Source: Minisyncoccales bacterium
Lineage (GTDB): Bacteria; Patescibacteriota; Minisyncoccia; Minisyncoccales; JAGMDC01
Assembly (NCBI GenBank): GCA_049642725.1
Contig: JBARPC010000016.1
Span: forward strand, 14,838-78,837
Direction of reading: 5' to 3'
DNA length: 64,000 bases
Numbering within the stretch: position 1 is the stretch's first letter; each line of letters opens with the position of its first letter. Both the position numbers and the translations under genes were made by a program. Shown here piece after piece: positions 2,402-35,802 of the stretch. The notes beneath the pieces were generated by a model. That model ran no database searches, had not been told where the DNA came from, and saw nothing but the letters and a program-made list of their open reading frames with translations.

Positions 2402-3285
2402 TATTGTAGTTCTAGAGAATTTTCTACTACATAGATAGAATCGCCTTTTTCTACTATTCCATCTGCAGTATAGCTAATCAAAGTACCTGCTTCTCCGCTG
2501 ATGCTAACAGTTAAGCTTTTATTATTATATCTCCTATCGCGATGAATACAAAACATAGTATCAGGATTATTTAGCCAATGAGTATGAATATGAATCAGTT
2601 GATCATCAGTTCCTACTGTAACCGTTCCCTCCCAATCAAATTGTCCTCCTATTATAAAATCACTAATTTTTATGCTTTCAACAGTAGCAGGGTCGCTAAA
2701 AGTTAAAGTTATTATTTCATTAATCGTATCTATATTTCTATCGTAAACAAAATGAATATGCCGCGAATCAGTAATACGGGTGCCTAAAAGAGGGACAGCT
2801 GTTCCTTGAATACTTGCTTCTCCCGATGAAGCTATTACTATAACCCTAAACTGATTAGGATCTTTTTTCAGTTCAAGTTTGACAGTGCCAAATTCAGAAG
2901 TAGTGCCGCTGATTCTATCAAAAATTATTTCTGTACCGCCTCCATTAAAAGATATGTTTGAAATTTCTATTCTAGAAGAAAAATCATACCTTTCATTATT
3001 AGAATCCAAGGCATCATAAACATTTCCCTTGAATAAAACTATTTTATCTTGTTCAAAATGGACTCCGTATTCAGAAGCGCCCTCTGAACTCAAAGTTTTT
3101 GACTGTGATAATCTTAAAGCGCTAAGAATTTTCTCTGAGCTTGTGTTTAATTCGCTATGAGAACGAAAAGAAGAATAAACGTTTGCTGTTATTGCGCACA
3201 GAATAATAATAACAGCTATAATCACCAAAACCTCTATTAAGGTAAAACTCTTACATTTTTTGAAAATTGGAAATTGGAATTTCAT
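2401..3285 (-). CDS. pseudopilin, GspH/FimT-like size class
   Basis: KCKSFTLIEVLVIIAVIIILCAI is a prepilin-like motif with Glu5. Located immediately downstream of pilC. Confidence 0.6.
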   Translation of the reverse strand: MKFQFPIFKKCKSFTLIEVLVIIAVIIILCAITANVYSSFRSHSELNTSSEKILSALRLSQSKTLSSEGASEYGVHFEQDKIVLFKGNVYDALDSNNERYDFSSRIEISNISFNGGGTEIIFDRISGTTSEFGTVKLELKKDPNQFRVIVIASSGEASIQGTAVPLLGTRITDSRHIHFVYDRNIDTINEIITLTFSDPATVESIKISDFIIGGQFDWEGTVTVGTDDQLIHIHTHWLNNPDTMFCIHRDRRYNNKSLTVSISGEAGTLISYTADGIVEKGDSIYVVENSLELQ

Positions 3286-5420: not shown

Positions 5421-6332
5421 CTATATTTCGGCAACTAACAAATCTAAAGCAATAATTGGTTCTATTTTCCCTGTTTTGATGCCAAGGTCTGCCTCAAATA
5501 GTTTATGGTAGATTTTTTTTAATTCTTCTAATTTAAACTTCTTTGCCTGAAAAAAACTTTTTCTTGCAACATATGGATGGATACCAGTGATTTGAGACAA
5601 GCCATTCTTTACCGCAAGTATATTTCTAAACTGAAAAACAATCATTGAAAAAAGATATAAAGGCGAGTCGCCTTTATCTAAATGCTTATGAATTAAAAAA
5701 AGAGCTGTTTTTTTATCTCTTGAAGCAATAGCATCAATTGTTTTAAAAATATCTGTCTCAATCTTCGGCTTGACTAAAAGACATATATCACTGACGGCCG
5801 TTGATGTTCTATGCCTGGTGTAATTAACTAATTTATTAATTTCATTTGACATCCGCCATAAATCCTGACCAACATAATCAATAAGTAATTCCAATGCTTT
5901 TGGTTCTATTTCTGTTCCATACCCATCAAATTCTTTTTTAATCCAATTTTTTAATTGTAAACCGTTTAATAATTTAAATTCCTGGCAGCGAGCCTCTTTT
6001 TTAAGCAAATTGAACAAACTACTATTCTTATGGATTTCTTTTTCCTCGTAAAATAAAATAATATCTTTTAATTCTTTAATTTTCTTCCTGTTTTTAGAAA
6101 ACTTTTCTTTGAAGTCCTGGTTTGTAAAAGCATTTTTTAAAATAATCAACTTTTTCTCCTGAAACATTGAGCTTATTTGAAAATGATTTTCAAAGTCCTC
6201 AAAGGTCTGTTCTTTTATGTCTAAAAACTTTAAATTTAATCCGCTCTGGTGGATTTTTTTGTAATGTTCAACTATCTCTGTTAGCTTTTGGCGCGACCTG
6301 TATGTATCTGGACCATAAATAAGAATAATCAT
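5421..6332 (-). CDS. holA: DNA polymerase III delta subunit
   Basis: 303 aa. IILIYGPDTYRSRQKL start and overall HolA-like helical pattern. Length fits. Confidence 0.7.
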   Translation of the reverse strand: MIILIYGPDTYRSRQKLTEIVEHYKKIHQSGLNLKFLDIKEQTFEDFENHFQISSMFQEKKLIILKNAFTNQDFKEKFSKNRKKIKELKDIILFYEEKEIHKNSSLFNLLKKEARCQEFKLLNGLQLKNWIKKEFDGYGTEIEPKALELLIDYVGQDLWRMSNEINKLVNYTRHRTSTAVSDICLLVKPKIETDIFKTIDAIASRDKKTALFLIHKHLDKGDSPLYLFSMIVFQFRNILAVKNGLSQITGIHPYVARKSFFQAKKFKLEELKKIYHKLFEADLGIKTGKIEPIIALDLLVAEI

Positions 6333-14026: not shown

Positions 14027-14932
14027 TTAAGGTATTCTATTAATTAAGCTATAAAAGCTATATTTTTTCAGAATCTCAACCACCTTTTCCTTATTATAAC
14101 CTTTCCTTTCACATTTTGCCAAATTAAAAACTAAAGGCGCGTCTGTCCGCGCCTTTGCTAAATCATAAGAAAAAAATACCTGCTCCTTGCAGTTCAATAA
14201 GAGCTCCTTGATTTTTGTTTTTAAATCCCATGCCTCGCCTGCTTCTATTGTCTTATAAAGATTTTCAATACTGCCGTATTCTTGAAGCAGTTCAACTGCT
14301 GTTTTCTTTCCAATGCCGGCAGCGCCTGGAATATTATCTGATGGATCGCCGGCTAAGGCCTTAAAATCAACCACTTGCTTTGGCAAAATCCCAAACCGTT
14401 CCTTAATTTTCTCCTCGTCATAAATAACAGTATCTTTAATCCCCTTGCCCAGAGTATAAACTTTAACATTTTGATTAACAAGCTGAAGCGCGTCTAAATC
14501 GCCTGTTAAAATTATGGTTTCAATTTTAGGCCCCCCACCACTTTTAGAATAAAAGTGGTGGGGGGTATTCGCAATAGTGGCAATTAAGTCATCCGCTTCA
14601 AATCCTTGTTCTTCAAAAATAGGGATTTGAAAACAATTCAAAATTTCCTTTATTTTTGGAATTTGCTCGTATAATTCATCCGGCGCTTTTACTCTTTTTG
14701 CTTTGTATTCAGTAAATTTTTTATGCCTGAAATTTGGTGCTGGAAAATCAAAAGTAGCAGCGATATAATCTGGTTTGAGTTCTTTTAAGACCTTTAAAAG
14801 AATAGAAAAATATCCGTAAACAGCATTAACCAGCTCGCCTTTCTTTGTTCTAAAAGGAGGCAGGGCATGGTATGCCCTATGCACCAAAGCATTGCTGTCA
14901 ATAATCACAAGACACTTTTTTTTCTCTTCCAT
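14027..14932 (-). CDS. stand-alone 5'-3' exonuclease (Pol I N-terminal/FEN-like)
   Basis: LVIIDSNALVHRAYHALP...FEADDLIATIA...LTGDLDALQLV...GDPSDNIPGAAGIGKKTA match the 5'-3' exonuclease/H3TH motifs. Confidence 0.85.
   Translation of the reverse strand: MEEKKKCLVIIDSNALVHRAYHALPPFRTKKGELVNAVYGYFSILLKVLKELKPDYIAATFDFPAPNFRHKKFTEYKAKRVKAPDELYEQIPKIKEILNCFQIPIFEEQGFEADDLIATIANTPHHFYSKSGGGPKIETIILTGDLDALQLVNQNVKVYTLGKGIKDTVIYDEEKIKERFGILPKQVVDFKALAGDPSDNIPGAAGIGKKTAVELLQEYGSIENLYKTIEAGEAWDLKTKIKELLLNCKEQVFFSYDLAKARTDAPLVFNLAKCERKGYNKEKVVEILKKYSFYSLINRIP
14531..14565. repeat. perfect 15-bp inverted repeat CCCCCCACCACTTTT-AGAAT-AAAAGTGGTGGGGGG inside the exonuclease CDS
   Basis: Read directly from the sequence. 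Encodes TPHHFYSKSGGGP in frame. Same arm sequence as 35560..35642. Confidence 0.9.
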
Positions 14933-16937: not shown

Positions 16938-16946
16938 TGGTATAAT
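16938..16946 (+). promoter_or_regulatory. extended -10 promoter (TGGTATAAT) for the downstream small RNA
   Basis: TG-G-TATAAT at 16938..16946. It lies 7-12 nt upstream of the start of the paired region. Confidence 0.5.
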
Positions 16947-16953
16947 TTTAATT

Positions 16954-17030
16954 GTGGTGGGGATGGCGTAGTGCGAAGTCGGGCTTATCATCCATGGCCT
17001 TCGGGGTGCAAATCCCCGCATCTCCACTAC
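16954..17030 (+). ncRNA. tRNA-like structured RNA (alanine-type acceptor stem and T-arm, non-canonical core)
   Basis: 5' GGGGATG (16959..16965) pairs with CATCTCC (17019..17025), including G3:U70. A17026 is at the discriminator position. The adjacent hairpin is CGGGG-TGCAAAT-CCCCG. The helix extends to 12 bp (16954..16965 / 17019..17030), with two G:U pairs that would be A:C on the other strand. I could not fold a D or anticodon arm. Confidence 0.4.
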
Positions 17031-17166: not shown

Positions 17167-18108
17167 TTATTTATCATCAACATAATATTTATTTCCTTGT
17201 TTGGAAACAATGCCATGGATTTGCATTAAAGAAAGAACAGTGCCTAATTTACTGACTGGAACATTTAAACTTCTGGAAATAGCATCAATTTCCAATGGCT
17301 CTCTCTGTAAATAAGCGATTATTTTCTCTTCAAGCGGAGAAAATGAACTTTTCAAATCAAAGGGTTTGGGCTCGCCTCGCTGAAGCCATGGCGAAGCGGG
17401 CGAGGTAAGCCCCGCAGGGGCGAAAAGGGGTCTTGATTTGAAAAGTTTATTTTCAGAGCTTTCACGATAAAATCTCAAAATATCCTTAGCTGAAATTGCC
17501 ATCTCTGCTCCATCCTTAATAAGCTGTAATGTGCCTTTTGAATTTTCACTTGTTATTGGCCCAGGCACAGCAAAAAGTTTTCGTTTATATTTATTGGCAT
17601 ATCCCGCAGTAATTAAAGAACCGCTTTTTTCTCCTGCCTCTATTACTAAACAAGCTTTAGACAAGCCGGCAATAATCCTGTTTCTTTTTGGATAAGTCCA
17701 AAAAGCTGGGGCTAAATCTTTTTCAAATTCAGAAATAATCAAGCAGTTATTATTTAAAATTTCAAAGTACAAATCTTTTTGATATTCTGGATGAATAATG
17801 TCTATTCCACAGGGCATTACTGCGATTGTCCTGCCGCCGGCCATTAAAGCAGCTTTGTGAGAAACAGCATCTATTCCATACATAAAGCCAGAAACAATAG
17901 TAATGCCAGCCATAGCAATTTCTGTAATAAATCTTTCAACAACCTGTTTACCATAAGTTGTCATTCTTCTGGAGCCGACAACTGCCAAGCAGTTTTCAAA
18001 AATTTCTGAATCCCATTTTCCTTTATGATACAGCCATTTCGGCGCATCGCTTACTTCTTTTAATAATCTTGGATATACTTTATCTTGTTTTGCAACAACA
18101 CCATTCAT
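17167..18108 (-). CDS. dprA: DNA processing protein DprA (Smf)
   Basis: VVGSRRMTTYGKQV...GITIVSGFMYGIDAVSHKAAL...GRTIAVMPCGID is the DprA Rossmann core. C-terminal winged-helix-like tail. Confidence 0.9.
   Translation of the reverse strand: MNGVVAKQDKVYPRLLKEVSDAPKWLYHKGKWDSEIFENCLAVVGSRRMTTYGKQVVERFITEIAMAGITIVSGFMYGIDAVSHKAALMAGGRTIAVMPCGIDIIHPEYQKDLYFEILNNNCLIISEFEKDLAPAFWTYPKRNRIIAGLSKACLVIEAGEKSGSLITAGYANKYKRKLFAVPGPITSENSKGTLQLIKDGAEMAISAKDILRFYRESSENKLFKSRPLFAPAGLTSPASPWLQRGEPKPFDLKSSFSPLEEKIIAYLQREPLEIDAISRSLNVPVSKLGTVLSLMQIHGIVSKQGNKYYVDDK
17368..17430. repeat. GC-rich double-hairpin patch inside the dprA linker
   Basis: CTCGCC/GGCGAG plus TCGC/GCGA stems, then GCCCC-GCA-GGGGC. Encodes RPLFAPAGLTSPASPWLQRGEPKPF. 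Strongly GC-rich against AT-rich flanks. Confidence 0.6.
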
Positions 18109-26911: not shown

Positions 26912-29900
26912 CTATTCCTTACTGATATCTAAAGCTGCAAAATTAGGCCGGTGGTTGACTTTGAAAGGAGATTCTGTGCCGCCGTTAGCCGCGCCTTGGG
27001 AAGAGGAAGAACACAAAGAGCTGGTATTGTGGTCGCAGACAAAAGCATGCCAGACATTGGATTCGCTATCACCCACTAAAGCTGTATAATTACAGCCGGC
27101 TTCAGACCCGGATGACGTAGAAGAAGATATACACCAATTACCATCGTCACAAGTTGGAGCAGCTTCGTTATTAGCGGTGATATTATTTCCCTTACAAATG
27201 GCTAAATAATAATTATCACTATCACCATCGGTGCCAGTCGCAGTAAAACTAACATTTGAATCCACATCAGTGGGCGAGGTTCCTGAAGACCCGCCATCCG
27301 AAGGACCCGCAGTAAAACTCGGCGCCGTTGCATAGGTGCAGTAGATGGAGTATTTATAATTATTAACATTTGTAGCATCTGTTGGATGACTAGGAGAATC
27401 ATAACTATTAGTACTATCTACATATGCTTGATTAGCATCTCCAGTATCATAATACATACCAGTTGCTACATCTTGAACTATCATCAAAACATAATCAGTT
27501 GAAGCGGTTAGAGTTGGTTCTGTGGAATAACTCGCTGTTTCAAGGGAATCAGTTGACATTGATATATCATATTCATTGACCTCATCGCCCCAAACCCCTA
27601 CAACATACATCTTAGTACCGTCTGAGCTGAAGAATATTCCACGAGGACCTGCTTCCTCCTCTGCCACAGAAAAGCACTGAAGATACACTGCGGTCGAGAC
27701 GTTCCAGGGGGTAGATAAATCATACTCGTTGACGTCAACTCCAAAATTCCCAATAACATACATCTTGGTCCCATCTGGCTTGAAGAATACTGCGTGTGGA
27801 GATTGTTCCTCCTCTGCCACAGAAAAGCACTGAAGATACACTGCGGTAGCAACATTCCAGGGGGTAGATAAATCATACTCGTTGACGTTATCTCCAGAAT
27901 CCCCAATAACGTACATCTTGGTCCCATCTGGCTTGAAGAATACTCCCCTTGGGACTCCTTCTTCATTAGATACAGAAAAGTTCTGAAGATACACTGCGGT
28001 AGCAACATTCCAGGGGGTAGATAAATCATACTCGTTGACGTCAACTCCTATGCGCCCGACAACGTACATCTTGGTCCCATCTGGCTTGAAGAATACTGCC
28101 TGTGGATATGTGTCCTGCCCTGCCACAGAAAAGTTCTGAAGATACACTGCGGTTGATATGTCCCAGGCAAAAGATGGGTCATAAACACTATCACTTATAC
28201 CATTTGTTACTATATTAAGATTACTTGCCAATGCTATAATCCCTTTTATATTTATACCTGAGGAAGGAACTGAATAATGAAATTTTATATTCTGAATAGT
28301 CCCCACATCAGATGGGCTGGTGAATTTAGAACCATACATATAATCAGCGCCTTGAGCATCGTCTAAGGTGCCTCCTTTTGTTTCATACCCAAAAGTCGGG
28401 TCAACACTCACGGGATAAATGGCGTTGTCCAGCCAATTCTGATCAATGGTAATAGTTAGCGTCTTTGTTTGCTCGTCTATATTCAATTCGCCCCAAACTT
28501 CTGTTCCAGCACTATCAATTATTTTCGGTCGGTAAATATGAAACGCTTTGCCTGCTCTGTAATTCTTTCCATTCGGAAATGCCTCGTAGTTTCCTGCCTT
28601 ACTTTCGTGATAAACAGCGTAAGAGTCAACTACATTTTCAGGTTGAAACACACCTTTTTCACTTCTCATATCTGGCTGATAATAAAACTTTAATCCTTTC
28701 GTTTCTATGTCTAAACTAATTATATTACTCGCTGGCTTCTCTTTTAAGATAACCTCAAATTCAAATCCCTCTGCGTGTTCTTCTGTTTTCTCTAACGGAT
28801 AGAAATGGGCTTCTTTTTTCTCTTCTATCCACTTCAGCTTGTTTCCTTGTAATTGGAGATTGCTATCTGTATCTGTGGAGACGGCTGTTGGCAAACTTAC
28901 AGAGACAAAACACTCCTCGTCCCATCTATGAAGTTTAACATAGGGAGCTAGGGGCGAATGTCTTTTGACACCTATTTCAATAACCTCGCCACTTGAAGAT
29001 TTAAGGGTATAAGTTCCATCTTCCATTTCTATAATTGCTTGAGGAGTTATTTCAGTATTATAATTTGGGTCAATGGTTTTTGTTTCACCAGCCCGAAGAA
29101 AAACATTTAAAGATAAAATCAAAAGAGCTTGCCCGTTCTTTCTTTCAATCCACAATTCCGGCTCAAATTCATTAGGAATATCTGAATAATCATAAAAAGA
29201 GAGATATTTCATATTTTGGCTATAGAAAGAAATCTTGCCGGGGCTTTCCAATTTTTGAGGATTTTCAGAAAGAGAAAAAATGCGATTATCCCAGTGTATT
29301 CTTTCTGCATTGATTTTATGTTTCAGGAGAAGGGATAAATTTAAATCCTGCTCGTTGTTATTAGTAAAAGTTAAAGTTTGCTTAATTCTTGATTCATTAT
29401 TCTCAATTCCTAATTCCTTGTAATGCGTAGTTAGGGAAATTTGGGAAAGGTCAACCTCGGTTTTTATGCTATGGCTTTTGTCAACCCCCACACCAAAATC
29501 TTTGGTGTGGGGGTCAATTTGTTTCGTGATTCTATATTCAGGAAGAGATTGAATTTCCATTCCTAAAAAGGATTTTATACTGTTTCCAGATTTTTCCCAA
29601 AAAGAAGGCGGCTGATAAAAATCCTGTTTATTGAAAATCGGCTCATTGGCTTCAATTGACAAACTTAAATCCTGAAATCCTGGTTTTAAATCAGGATATT
29701 CGTCTAAAAACTCATTTTCCAACAAATCAGAAATCAAATACTCATCAATAATTTTTGCGCTGCCAACTATTTCTTCCTTGTTATTTTCTTTTTTAGTTAA
29801 AGGAATATTCTGCGGATAAGAAGTTTCCTGAATTTCTAAATAAGAAGTTCTTAGTTTATAAAAAGGATTTTCTCCTTGTGCAGAAACAACCTGAAAAAAA

Positions 29901-29950
29901 GCAATAATGCCTATGGCTATAATAATAACGCCTAAAAAGTTTTTTTTCAT
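26912..29950 (-). CDS. 1012-aa secreted surface protein with four propeller-like repeats and a Cys-rich C-terminal module
   Basis: Signal peptide. Repeats FFKPDGTKMYV.G..G..VNEYDLSTPWNV.TAVYLQ.FSV. The C-terminal FVCD...S motif module is shared with 23441..25465. Confidence 0.75.
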   Translation of the reverse strand: MKKNFLGVIIIAIGIIAFFQVVSAQGENPFYKLRTSYLEIQETSYPQNIPLTKKENNKEEIVGSAKIIDEYLISDLLENEFLDEYPDLKPGFQDLSLSIEANEPIFNKQDFYQPPSFWEKSGNSIKSFLGMEIQSLPEYRITKQIDPHTKDFGVGVDKSHSIKTEVDLSQISLTTHYKELGIENNESRIKQTLTFTNNNEQDLNLSLLLKHKINAERIHWDNRIFSLSENPQKLESPGKISFYSQNMKYLSFYDYSDIPNEFEPELWIERKNGQALLILSLNVFLRAGETKTIDPNYNTEITPQAIIEMEDGTYTLKSSSGEVIEIGVKRHSPLAPYVKLHRWDEECFVSVSLPTAVSTDTDSNLQLQGNKLKWIEEKKEAHFYPLEKTEEHAEGFEFEVILKEKPASNIISLDIETKGLKFYYQPDMRSEKGVFQPENVVDSYAVYHESKAGNYEAFPNGKNYRAGKAFHIYRPKIIDSAGTEVWGELNIDEQTKTLTITIDQNWLDNAIYPVSVDPTFGYETKGGTLDDAQGADYMYGSKFTSPSDVGTIQNIKFHYSVPSSGINIKGIIALASNLNIVTNGISDSVYDPSFAWDISTAVYLQNFSVAGQDTYPQAVFFKPDGTKMYVVGRIGVDVNEYDLSTPWNVATAVYLQNFSVSNEEGVPRGVFFKPDGTKMYVIGDSGDNVNEYDLSTPWNVATAVYLQCFSVAEEEQSPHAVFFKPDGTKMYVIGNFGVDVNEYDLSTPWNVSTAVYLQCFSVAEEEAGPRGIFFSSDGTKMYVVGVWGDEVNEYDISMSTDSLETASYSTEPTLTASTDYVLMIVQDVATGMYYDTGDANQAYVDSTNSYDSPSHPTDATNVNNYKYSIYCTYATAPSFTAGPSDGGSSGTSPTDVDSNVSFTATGTDGDSDNYYLAICKGNNITANNEAAPTCDDGNWCISSSTSSGSEAGCNYTALVGDSESNVWHAFVCDHNTSSLCSSSSQGAANGGTESPFKVNHRPNFAALDISKE
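27556..28170 (-). repeat. four tandem ~144-bp coding repeats, related to 24285..24745
   Basis: Repeated DNA acatcttggtcccatctggcttgaagaatac... every ~144 bp. Confidence 0.7.
29485..29513. repeat. perfect 13-bp inverted repeat CCCCCACACCAAA-ATC-TTTGGTGTGGGGG inside CDS, flanked by TCAA on both sides
   Basis: Read directly. Encodes DPHTKDFGVGVD in frame. G/C-capped like the 14531 and 35560 elements. Confidence 0.8.
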
Positions 29951-34260: not shown

Positions 34261-35559
34261 ATGAATAAAAAAATAACTGGTCAAATCTTTATTTCAGATG
34301 AAGCACTTTCTGAGATAGAAAAGAAAGTAAAAAATCTTTCTGATTTCAAAAAAAACATTGAATCAGTTTTACAAGAAAATATTACTGAAGTTTTAGAAAA
34401 TATTTTAGCAGGCGCCATAAATCTAAATGCTTCAGATATTCATATTGAACCAAGAAAAAAAGAAACAAAAATCAGAATAAGAATTGACGGCATACTCCAA
34501 GAGGTTGTCTCTTTAGATAAAAAAATATTTGAATCCATTCTTTCTAGAATCAAACTTTTAAGCGCTCTGAAGCTTAATGTTTCTGACCGGCCGCAAGACG
34601 GCAGATTTTCTATTATTTCCAAACAGGAAATAATAGAAATTAGAGTCTCTTCCCTGCCCTCTGAATACGGAGAGTCAATTGTTTTAAGAATTTTAAATCC
34701 TAAATCATTAATTGAGATTGAAAGTTTAGGACTAAGGAAAGATCTGCTTGAACTTTTCTTAAAAGAAATAAAAAAGCCAAATGGAATGATTATTGTTACC
34801 GGACCTACCGGCTCTGGAAAAACAACTACTCTCTATGCTTTTCTTAAAAGGATTAAAAGCCCGGAAGTTAAAGTTATAACAATTGAAGACCCTATTGAAT
34901 ACCATCTCAAAGGTATTTCCCAGACACAAGTAAGACCGGAAAAAGGATACGACTTTGCTAACGGCCTCCGTTCTATTATGAGGCAGGACCCAGACGCAAT
35001 TCTGGTTGGAGAAATCAGGGATTTAGAAACAACTAAAATTGCCATCCAATCAGCGCTTACCGGCCATTTAGTTTTGACTACCTTACATACAAATGACGCT
35101 GCCGGCACTATTGCCCGTTTAATAAATTTAGGCGCGAAGCCGGCAAATATTGGACCAGCAGTAAATATGATTATTGCGCAAAGATTGGTGAGAAAAATCT
35201 GTCCAAAATGCGCTAAATTAGAAAAAGCCCCGCCCTCAATTTTAAATAAATTAAAAAGAGAATTGAAAGGAATTCCCAAAGAGATAAAAATTCCTAAAAT
35301 TGGTGATGGGTTGAAAATTCTAAAACCAAAGGGCTGTGAAGATTGTCATAACTCTGGATATAAAGGAAGGGCTGGTATTTTTGAAGCCATTTTGATTGAT
35401 GATGAAATGGAAAACTTTATTTTTAAAAACCCTTCAATCGCTGCTTTAAGAAAAAAAGCATTTAAAAAAGGAATGACAACTATGAAGCAAGATGGTTTTT
35501 TAAAAGTTTTAAATCAAGAAACAAACATAGAGGAAATAGAAAGGGTGGCTGGCGAGTAA
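34261..35559 (+). CDS. pilB: type IV pilus/type II secretion ATPase (PilB/GspE family, short N-terminus)
   Basis: Walker A GPTGSGKTTTLY, Asp and His boxes (RQDPDAILVGEIRD, GHLVLTTLHTN), tetracysteine CPKC...CEDC motif. Confidence 0.85.
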   Translation: MNKKITGQIFISDEALSEIEKKVKNLSDFKKNIESVLQENITEVLENILAGAINLNASDIHIEPRKKETKIRIRIDGILQEVVSLDKKIFESILSRIKLLSALKLNVSDRPQDGRFSIISKQEIIEIRVSSLPSEYGESIVLRILNPKSLIEIESLGLRKDLLELFLKEIKKPNGMIIVTGPTGSGKTTTLYAFLKRIKSPEVKVITIEDPIEYHLKGISQTQVRPEKGYDFANGLRSIMRQDPDAILVGEIRDLETTKIAIQSALTGHLVLTTLHTNDAAGTIARLINLGAKPANIGPAVNMIIAQRLVRKICPKCAKLEKAPPSILNKLKRELKGIPKEIKIPKIGDGLKILKPKGCEDCHNSGYKGRAGIFEAILIDDEMENFIFKNPSIAALRKKAFKKGMTTMKQDGFLKVLNQETNIEEIERVAGE

Positions 35560-35642
35560 CCCCCCACCACTTTGTAAAACGCCATCTGAAATTTCCTAAA
35601 TATTTTTTTATCTATTTTGACTTTTGGCAAAGTGGTGGGGGG
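35560..35642. repeat. 15-bp perfect inverted repeat CCCCCCACCACTTTG ... CAAAGTGGTGGGGGG separated by 53 nt
   Basis: Arms at 35560..35574 and 35628..35642, starting the base after the pilB stop. The arm is the same as in the intragenic palindrome 14531..14565. Confidence 0.8.
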
Positions 35643-35645
35643 TGA

Positions 35646-35778
35646 GATAGCCTGGAGCCGGGGACAGGACTTCAGCTTGAGAACTTAAAGTTCAGAATTT
35701 CTTTGAGGAATAAGCCAGCATTACCTGAATTATCCATTAACTAAAAGAAATTCCTGTGTCCCCAGCTCCAGGCTATCT
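35646..35778. mobile_element. 133-bp MITE-like element with 22-bp terminal inverted repeats (1 mismatch) and an internal 10-bp stem
   Basis: AGATAGCCTGGAGCCGGGGACA (35646..35667) versus TGTCCCCAGCTCCAGGCTATCT (35757..35778). Inner pair GAATTTCTTT/AAAGAAATTC. No ORF. Confidence 0.5.
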
Positions 35779-35802
35779 TTGCCTTTAATTATAATAAATA
35801 AT

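Follow-up and report, generated by a model that had tools for sequence, protein, structure and literature searches.

A palindromic DNA element inside a Minisyncoccales exonuclease gene, probably one copy of a short dispersed family in Patescibacteria and Omnitrophota

Background

Among the palindromic repeats that reside inside genes, the Rickettsia palindromic elements (RPEs) occur in RNA genes as well as in coding sequences. The coding copies form in-frame fusions in many metabolic genes, and are reported or predicted to be compatible with the folding and function of the proteins (PMC10969869). The guanine-cytosine (GC) clusters of yeast mitochondria include in-frame insertions in var1 and insertions into each other's loops, and are characterised by short terminal repeats and many subfamilies (PMC8811140). 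The present work concerns a stretch of 64,000 nucleotides (nt) from a Minisyncoccales bacterium (Patescibacteriota; GenBank assembly GCA_049642725.1, contig JBARPC010000016.1, positions 14,838 to 78,837 of the forward strand), here termed the window, in which a perfect hairpin is found inside the gene for a stand-alone 5'-3' exonuclease. This hairpin probably represents one copy of a dispersed, short, non-autonomous and selfish palindromic DNA element. [quoted passage not shown]

Results and discussion

The hairpin and its host exonuclease

The initial annotation of the window described a perfect 15-bp inverted repeat in the exonuclease gene, between the EADD metal-binding and LTGD motifs, in a segment described as looking about eight residues longer than in the Pol I N-domains of Taq and E. 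coli. The sequence at 14531-14565 is exactly as noted and the pairing is perfect, with the stem one pair longer than stated (16 bp around a 3-nt GAA loop) and the arms reading CCCCCCACCACTTTT(A) and (T)AAAAGTGGTGGGGGG. In a window of ~33 % GC, the two-arm pattern occurs twice, as opposed to 0.00 times across 100 shuffles. The RNA of the coding (minus) strand folds at -29.7 kcal/mol, compared with -12.4 +/- 2.8 kcal/mol for shuffled versions (z = -6.2), and 0/200 shuffles fold as well.

The host gene is intact and encodes a full-length exonuclease with both Pfam domains of the family (5_3_exonuc_N, 170.9 bits; 5_3_exonuc, 101.3 bits). Its open reading frame (ORF) reads the hairpin as TPHHFYSKSGGGP, preceded by EADD (residues 112-115) and followed by LTGD (residues 142-145), which agrees with the position given initially. 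Together with the preceding A on the coding strand the hairpin makes up 36 nt, or 12 codons, read as TPHHFYSKSGGG; these form residues 123-134, between a helix (113-122) and a strand (137-142), and the peptides predicted over the insert region are IANTPHHFYSK and SGGGPK. In an AlphaFold2 model built with 25 orthologues (mean predicted local distance difference test score, pLDDT, 89; predicted template modelling score, pTM, 0.88) the insert is coil, with a pLDDT below 50 for residues 126-130. As modelled, it is a surface loop after the helix that begins at the EADD motif, and nothing in the model suggests either loss or gain of exonuclease function. The insert is probably of no use to the enzyme. 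When aligned with HMMER to Taq Pol I and to the Pol I structure 6vde, the protein in each case shows eight gap positions at the insert, in agreement with the excess given initially. Loop length varies among the closest orthologues, relative to which the excess is smaller, at one residue over the longer allele of the sister sequence and four over the common short form.

The hairpin is mobile relative to the exonuclease gene

Only two of the 120 orthologues listed contain the insert peptide, namely the window protein (P0001) and P0004, from the Parcubacteria metagenome-assembled genome (MAG) JAGMAD01, with the remaining 118 lacking it. P0004 is 76 % identical to the window protein, and its gene has the same DNA palindrome with a single loop substitution. 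Orthologues sharing the peptide without the palindrome, which would have spoken against a mobile repeat, were thus not found, since the sole independent carrier has the palindrome too. Three alleles of the loop can be distinguished: a short form of 15 nt (KEQVL) in most orthologues, a GC-rich form of 24 nt (QFxQLAE) in the related loci L004 and L006, and the 36-nt hairpin form in the window (W) and locus L002. On the basis of DNA identity W pairs with L004 (86 %) and L002 with L006 (87 %), with 75 % between W and L002, so that each sister pair has one hairpin-bearing member (W and L002). Both the 24-nt and the 36-nt forms are incongruent with the gene tree, and the flanks of each hairpin copy group with their own clade. 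The hairpins of W and L002 are identical at 35/36 nt and 12/12 third codon positions, compared with 76 % and 55 %, respectively, for the whole gene. The incongruence of the hairpin, together with flanks that follow the clades, indicates that the hairpin is mobile relative to the exonuclease gene. The loop is a hot spot for replacement, with the hairpin copies taking the place of 24 or 33 nt at a common right-hand boundary without any duplication, and the 36-nt unit was either acquired twice at one spot or moved between lineages without its flanks. Two metagenome scans with clade-conserved loop flanks gave 0 matches to filled or empty alleles at the strain level.

The 24-nt segment of L004 and L006, which follows the ...ATIAK codons, reads CAGTTCCKCCAGCTGGCRGAG and contains a palindrome of its own with a CAGCTG core (CCAGCTGG), lengthened to GCCAGCTGGC in L006. 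In relatives, genes of the 23S_rRNA_IVP family (PF05635) are located a few kb from the exonuclease gene (L001/L002, 3338-3802; L006, 3953-4261). This four-helix-bundle family has also been linked to diversity-generating retroelements.

A dispersed family with invariant arms

A scan of one genome per species with the pattern CCCCCCACCAC, a spacer of 1-61 nt and GTGGTGGGGGG detected the arms in at least 117 loci (119 copies there); the family counts, hosts, flanks and cores given below rest on these loci. The window copies are thus not the only ones. The initial proposal, that palindromes of one family can reside in frame within genes, is supported and carried far past the window, with ~16 in-frame copies in ~15 proteins. 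The associated expectation of polymorphism is also borne out, as presence and absence differ between close relatives for the exonuclease copy, the 35560-35642 copy and the copy in ribosomal protein L2. Most copies add TTT(T)/AAA(A) to the match, although a T/A tract was not demanded by the pattern, and the hosts of these copies are Patescibacteria (Saccharibacteria, Parcubacteria/Paceibacterota, Zambryski-, Nomura-, Magasanik-, Nealson-, Yonath-, Wildermuth- and Gribaldobacteria) and Omnitrophota. The tract is missing from the few matches in high-GC genomes, which resemble chance occurrences or ordinary stem-loops.

From the outside inwards, a copy consists of a C6/G6 clamp, ACCAC/GTGGT, the T/A tract and a variable centre of 3 to ~285 nt. 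The string GTGGTGG resembles Chi-type GNTGGTGG motifs. Outside the Omnitrophota the copies measure 32-83 nt, most commonly 35 nt (18/61), and the Patescibacteria copies have only the arms in common, with every long core being unique. Additional outer inverted repeats, GAATTNAA...TTAAATTC and, farther out, ACGTAAGTTGT..., are found in the Omnitrophota copies, whose cores of ~20 nt group into families, so that this version looks like an ordinary MITE family in its behaviour. Related subfamilies with other arm sequences, all of them perfect palindromes, are common to several genomes. Two copies were seen in the 64-kb window and five in each of two other genomes. Nested copies (L034, L029) occur, as do decayed copies with asymmetric mismatches, such decay being expected of a neutral insertion.

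Copies read through in proteins

The ~16 in-frame copies are read in all three frames (PPTTF...KVVGG, xPHHF...KSGGG and PPPLL...KWWG). Pfam confirms UvrA, GltX, MiaA (with a nested pair), ribosomal protein L2, a GatB-domain protein, a RecG-like helicase, trigger factor, TsaD, MnmA and MurB as hosts, while an FtsZ-like protein, a type IV pilin leader and a solute-binding protein were recognised by eye alone. In every frame the 15-nt arms are stop-free, starting with Pro-type and finishing with Gly-type codons, and since the arms are identical on both strands this holds in either orientation. The insert appears to be tolerated because the arms lack stop codons and encode a Pro...Gly loop. The MurB genes of two distant genomes (54 % amino acid and 61 % nt identity) contain copies at the same codon, which are identical at 32/32 stem positions and differ only in the 3-nt loop, with the loop of the Saccharibacteria copy being that of two other copies in the same genome. 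This sharing of site and loop points to intragenomic copying and to sites that are preferred or strongly filtered.

The C-terminal disordered linker of the FtsZ-like protein (L099, ~6250-6281 and nearby) contains three in-frame subtypes, CCCCCCACCACTTTT, CCCCCCACCTTTT and CCCCCACTTT, and disordered linkers may accumulate copies.

Insertion signature

Comparison of filled and empty L2 genes (90 % nt identity) shows a clean insertion. The filled gene (L045, JAGMAD01) reads GAT AAA [CCCCCC...GGGGGG T AAA] GAA and the empty one (L130) GAC AAA GAA, a difference of exactly +39 nt, made up of the 35-nt hairpin and a (T)AAA direct repeat of 3-4 nt; the peptide predicted for the insert region is ...YQDKPPTTFQGK. 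A further candidate for an insert-less L2, P0241 (276 amino acids, 100 % identical), was discarded as the same protein called from a later start codon with the insert retained. TAAA repeats also flank the copies in the FtsZ-like protein and the pilin (L062), the former sharing the GATAAA left flank of the L2 copy and having almost the same loop. Across the copies the flanks have the consensus T/T/A/A, and direct repeats of at least 3 nt surround 19/100 copies, compared with 8.1 in shuffled pairings. The arms are far more conserved than the host genes (76 % for the exonuclease, 61 % for MurB). The presence/absence differences, nested copies and shared cores and loops show that the element has spread within and between genomes.

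Copies in RNA genes

Copies are also found in 23S rRNA (two sites), 5S rRNA, RNase P RNA and group I introns. The element stands in place of P3 of RNase P RNA in three lineages (L014, L087 and L037), replaces the hairpin at positions ~1750-1785 of the Rfam large subunit (LSU) rRNA model, and in 5S rRNA takes the place of the tip of the second hairpin arm, as laid out in the Rfam 5S model. The variable core of the Omnitrophota P3 copy is common to seven dispersed copies, which identifies this copy as an invader and the RNA gene as the recipient. Rfam searches of 18 Omnitrophota loci revealed no family covering the element.

The 5S rRNA gene of a Saccharibacteria locus (L102, 2435-2606, minus strand) is 172 nt long owing to two insertions, comprising the family hairpin at the tip of the second arm and an unrelated GC-rich insert of 35 nt in the loop of the first arm.

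Origin of the element

The most probable explanation is that the exonuclease hairpin is a copy of a selfish, non-autonomous element, which would have entered the gene by insertion into the DNA, at a permissive surface loop, and would be transcribed with it and translated straight through as a flexible Pro...Gly loop. The copying step itself must be inferred. The L2 copy, simply inserted and accompanied by a (T)AAA duplication of 3-4 nt, has the form that a staggered-cut transposase would leave. In the xPHHF...SGGG frame a following TAAA would create an in-frame TAA stop, which may explain why the duplication-free exonuclease and MurB copies replace loop sequence and would imply a secondary deletion.

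A number of observations weigh against this explanation. Most copies, including both in the window, lack a target-site duplication, and those in the exonuclease and MurB genes replace sequence instead of purely adding it. The 8-kb loci that were searched for an autonomous partner contain no full-length element or transposase between arms, the widest arm pair being 285 nt apart, and a unit of 35 nt whose arms lie next to each other would be ill-suited to a classical cut-and-paste transposase. Frame and stop-codon statistics are the basis on which translation of the inserts is deduced. That the 15-nt arms are identical in two phyla is hard to explain for a decaying non-autonomous element, and would need very recent activity everywhere, horizontal exchange, or re-templating from a conserved source. 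At two RNA sites the Rfam consensus is already a C-run/G-run hairpin (P3, cccccccccuu..aaaaggggggggGAGGAAAGUCC; 23S helix, gCccccccgggc..gcccggggggGcc), and C5-6ACCAC...GTGGTG5-6 is present at the 23S helix in all five Patescibacteria 23S genes examined, one of which (L102) was picked independently of that site, so that some RNA copies may be native helices rather than invaders.

As the mobiliser, the invariance of the arms and the overlap with native C/G-run helices call for explanation, copying without a transposase from a conserved source is retained as the principal rival, although it is considered rather unlikely. In such a scheme the arms would be native to the 23S helix (~1750-1785) and/or P3 of RNase P, would be copied elsewhere by ectopic template switching or short-patch gene conversion seeded by the C-runs and G-runs that are rare in AT-rich genomes, and would be re-supplied by the conserved RNA gene, which would explain their identity across lineages. 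The consensus hairpins at both RNA sites and the 5/5 23S genes fit this scheme, as do the duplication-free replacements in the exonuclease gene and the subfamily variants, which differ symmetrically in both arms and remain perfect palindromes; furthermore, template switching is documented as creating and maintaining perfect hairpins (PMC8794818). However, the L2 gene was cleanly inserted into, with duplication of (T)AAA, where there is no C-run or G-run, relatives have no pre-existing C6...G6 at the 35560-35642 and exonuclease sites, and the shared core of the Omnitrophota P3 copy makes the RNA gene the recipient. It is likewise unlikely that arm identity is kept by a dedicated writing process and not by ordinary transposition. 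Such a process could take either of two forms, with the 23S helix or RNase P P3 acting as a master template for repeated fold-back copying into breaks or C-run/G-run sites in other parts of the genome, or with an unrecognised enzyme for which the hairpin itself is the target of recognition and (T)AAA the insertion site.

Selection for a hairpin that functions in RNA or DNA, by binding a protein or directing processing (for instance as an RNase III-type site), by pausing translation or by stabilising the mRNA, is improbable. It would account for arms that stay invariant while loops and host genes diverge, for the filling of the same sites in distant lineages (MurB, RNase P P3 and the 23S helix), for the very stable stem and for the copies directly after stop codons (35560-35642, L008 and L096), but no single function suits the coding regions of ~15 proteins unrelated to one another as well as RNAs of four kinds and intergenic DNA. 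The hairpin is restricted to 2/120 of the exonuclease orthologues listed, the sister genome lacks the 35560-35642 copy, decayed asymmetric copies exist, and neither the window nor the tested Omnitrophota loci have an Rfam match. An intrinsic terminator was also rejected, with the T-tract inside the stem beside the loop, no terminator called at either copy by the scan, and the exonuclease copy in mid-gene. Bypass of the insert by the ribosome, as with the 'byp' inserts of Magnusiomyces mitochondria, or its removal from the mRNA, is very improbable. One known system does bypass GC-rich hairpin inserts within coding regions (PMC8811140), and the stem is very stable, yet every in-gene copy, long cores included, keeps the frame and is stop-free across all three frames, which neither bypass nor excision would need. 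The codons beside the exonuclease copy (AAT/ACC on one side, GGG/CCT on the other) do not form a matching take-off and landing pair, and the gene-breaking candidates inspected after in silico deletion of the element proved to be artefacts (a hairpin just past the stop codon and a spurious antisense ORF). That the element itself is an assembly or sequencing artefact or a chance palindrome can be all but dismissed. The sequences do come from metagenome assemblies, and runs of G are a known artefact of two-colour sequencing chemistry, but the element is present in assemblies from many unrelated studies, including one record not labelled as a MAG (AH-259-L07), inside long contigs and with reading frames kept open. 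The exonuclease copy recurs in several separately deposited or assembled NCBI, ENA and Logan records, and the chance expectation is 0.00.

Other features of the window

The features of the window are summarised in Table 1. The 35560-35642 copy, whose termini identical to the hairpin arms confirm the relationship drawn in the initial annotation, begins at the nucleotide following the TAA stop that ends a GspE/PilB-like ATPase gene (34261..35559), and its core is a singleton among 59 cores. The empty junction reads GGCGA/ATAGCC in the sister genome and GGCGA-GTAA-83 nt-TGAG-ATAGCC in the window, while a third relative carries an element of a different subfamily at this site. The hairpin at 29484-29514 is read in frame as DPHTKDFGVGV in an ORF of 1012 amino acids for a secreted or repeat protein (26912..29950, minus strand), and its 11-nt arms also occur in L103 (Wildermuthbacteria) and in L054, an unclassified MAG whose other copies have Omnitrophota-type flanks.

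Table 1. Coordinates and properties of the palindromic elements and associated features of the window
Feature	Position	Strand	Description and basis
Palindromic element	14531..14565		35 nt, sequence CCCCCCACCACTTTTAGAATAAAAGTGGTGGGGGG; perfect 16-bp stem, loop GAA
Host gene, stand-alone 5'-3' exonuclease (FEN-like), intact	14027..14932	-	301 amino acids; Pfam
Second copy, same family	35560..35642		83 nt; identical 14-nt termini CCCCCCACCACTTT / AAAGTGGTGGGGGG, 55-nt core
91-nt block	35556..35646		GTAA + 83 nt + TGAG; absent from sister genome JAGLYZ01 (pairwise alignment)
Third GC-clamped perfect hairpin, different subfamily	29484..29514		ACCCCCACACCAAA ATC TTTGGTGTGGGGGT
Small tRNA-like RNA gene	16954-17030	+	Fold; promoter-like TATAAT at ~16938-16943

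Three copies start right after a stop codon, in the context GAG TAA/CCCCCC (window 35557-35565; L008, ~3125-3136; L096, ~555-565). In view of the T/A/A flank consensus, the element may supply or target TAA.

The small RNA gene at 16954-17030 folds into an extended stem and a T-arm-like hairpin (GGGGUGCAAAUCCCC). Its acceptor-like stem of 7 bp (GGGGAUG/CAUCUCC), with what is read here as a G3:U70-type wobble, is extended by leader-trailer pairing (GUGGU/ACUAC). The gene is 89 % conserved in L006 (5041-5171), and has weak sub-threshold matches to the transfer-messenger RNA (tmRNA) and mascRNA models (E ~0.02-0.1). It is not called by ARAGORN or Rfam, with ARAGORN detecting no tRNA or tmRNA gene anywhere in the window and Rfam 15 giving no match there, and it looks like the tRNA-like domain of tmRNA minus the mRNA part. 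The 9-mer GTGGTGGGG, of which the window has five matches against 0.07 expected, was suggested initially to connect this RNA to the hairpin family. It is indeed present at 16954-16962, where it spans the leader and the first four acceptor bases, but the connection is not supported, as the similarity stops at 9 nt. One extra match against 0.07 expected is only weakly significant. The tRNA-like RNA is likewise not supported as the source of the arms, with the match ending at 9 nt and no co-variation in the one genome where this could be checked, in which the 5' end of the RNA is retained (L006), yet the only hairpin seen has different arms (L126).

An inverted repeat of 130 nt (17332-17461), with 29-nt arms that are 86 % complementary and a GC-rich core, lies inside a DprA-like ORF (17167..18108, minus strand), where its in-frame reading is ...ENKLFKSRPLFAPAGLTSPASPWLQRGEPKPFDLKSSFSP...; this probably represents the other family of in-frame palindromes, of RPE size, alluded to in the initial annotation. 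Between gspE and ruvB a stem of 22 bp (AGATAGCCTGGAGCCGGGGACA...) closes an element of 135 nt (35645-35779). Conservation of this element in the sister genome (L125) is very high; it is also present in L126 and has no Rfam match, and a sigma-70 consensus promoter with a perfect 12/12 match (35815-35788, minus strand) points into it. This is probably an undescribed small RNA gene. A scan of viral contigs for the palindromic element gave 0 matches, with no sign of carriage by phage.

Significance and comparison with known systems

On the reading favoured here, as a selfish palindromic element, the inserts of 12 or 13 residues of the Pro...Gly type in L2, MurB, TsaD, UvrA and the FtsZ-like protein would be repeat copies and not lineage-specific adaptations. 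Some expansion segments of Patescibacteria 23S, 5S and RNase P RNA bear the same repeat sequence, and the shared arms may mislead alignment, binning and recombination analyses. A writing process, if true, would represent a new route for sequence into essential protein genes, overwriting native helices of the ribosome and RNase P.

The element resembles MITEs in its shared terminal inverted repeats (14-15 nt, identical in the two window copies and ~100 others listed), and differs in that no related insertion sequence was found within the 8-kb loci; a target duplication, clean in the L2 pair, is seen in a minority of copies. Similarly, the Correia, enterobacterial repetitive intergenic consensus (ERIC) and repetitive extragenic palindromic (REP) repeats are short and non-autonomous, with terminal inverted repeats or hairpins, occur in many copies and are sometimes co-transcribed. 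Unlike REPs and bacterial interspersed mosaic elements (BIMEs), which are associated with the REP-associated tyrosine transposase (RAYT) and of which the former are extragenic by definition, many copies here are within genes, the flanks are T/T/A/A without a GTAG/CGTC head, and the copy number is low compared with hundreds per genome. Hairpins formed by template switching share the perfect stems, local replacement without duplication and symmetric arm differences (PMC8794818). Local switching, however, gives site-specific sequences, and one 15-nt arm at ~100 loci would need an ectopic template. The Magnusiomyces 'byp' inserts differ in being bypassed in translation, whereas the conservation of frame argues for read-through here.

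Like the RPEs, the element is a palindromic selfish repeat found in frame in unrelated housekeeping genes of a reduced, AT-rich host genome. RPEs are, however, confined to Rickettsia, with ~ten families of ~100-150 bp and a conserved peptide of tens of residues, whereas the present unit is as short as 35 nt (12-13 codons), is conserved in its 15-nt arms alone and occurs in two phyla. With the yeast mitochondrial GC clusters it has in common short GC-rich palindromes in an AT-rich genome, in-frame insertions, nesting, putative target duplications and subfamilies. The GC clusters differ in being mitochondrial and in having AG/TAG terminal repeats, as opposed to (T)AAA or none in bacterial hosts, and they are not known to have any arm sequence in common with it. 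The element is a member of neither group when judged by size, host or known sequence, and the GC clusters may be regarded as its closest functional analogue, with no homology claimed. To the cases of Rickettsia and yeast mitochondria it would add a third, independent one in which selfish DNA of palindromic form has colonised the coding regions of reduced AT-rich genomes, in this instance with an unusually small unit and with the two best-known ultra-small bacterial phyla as hosts.

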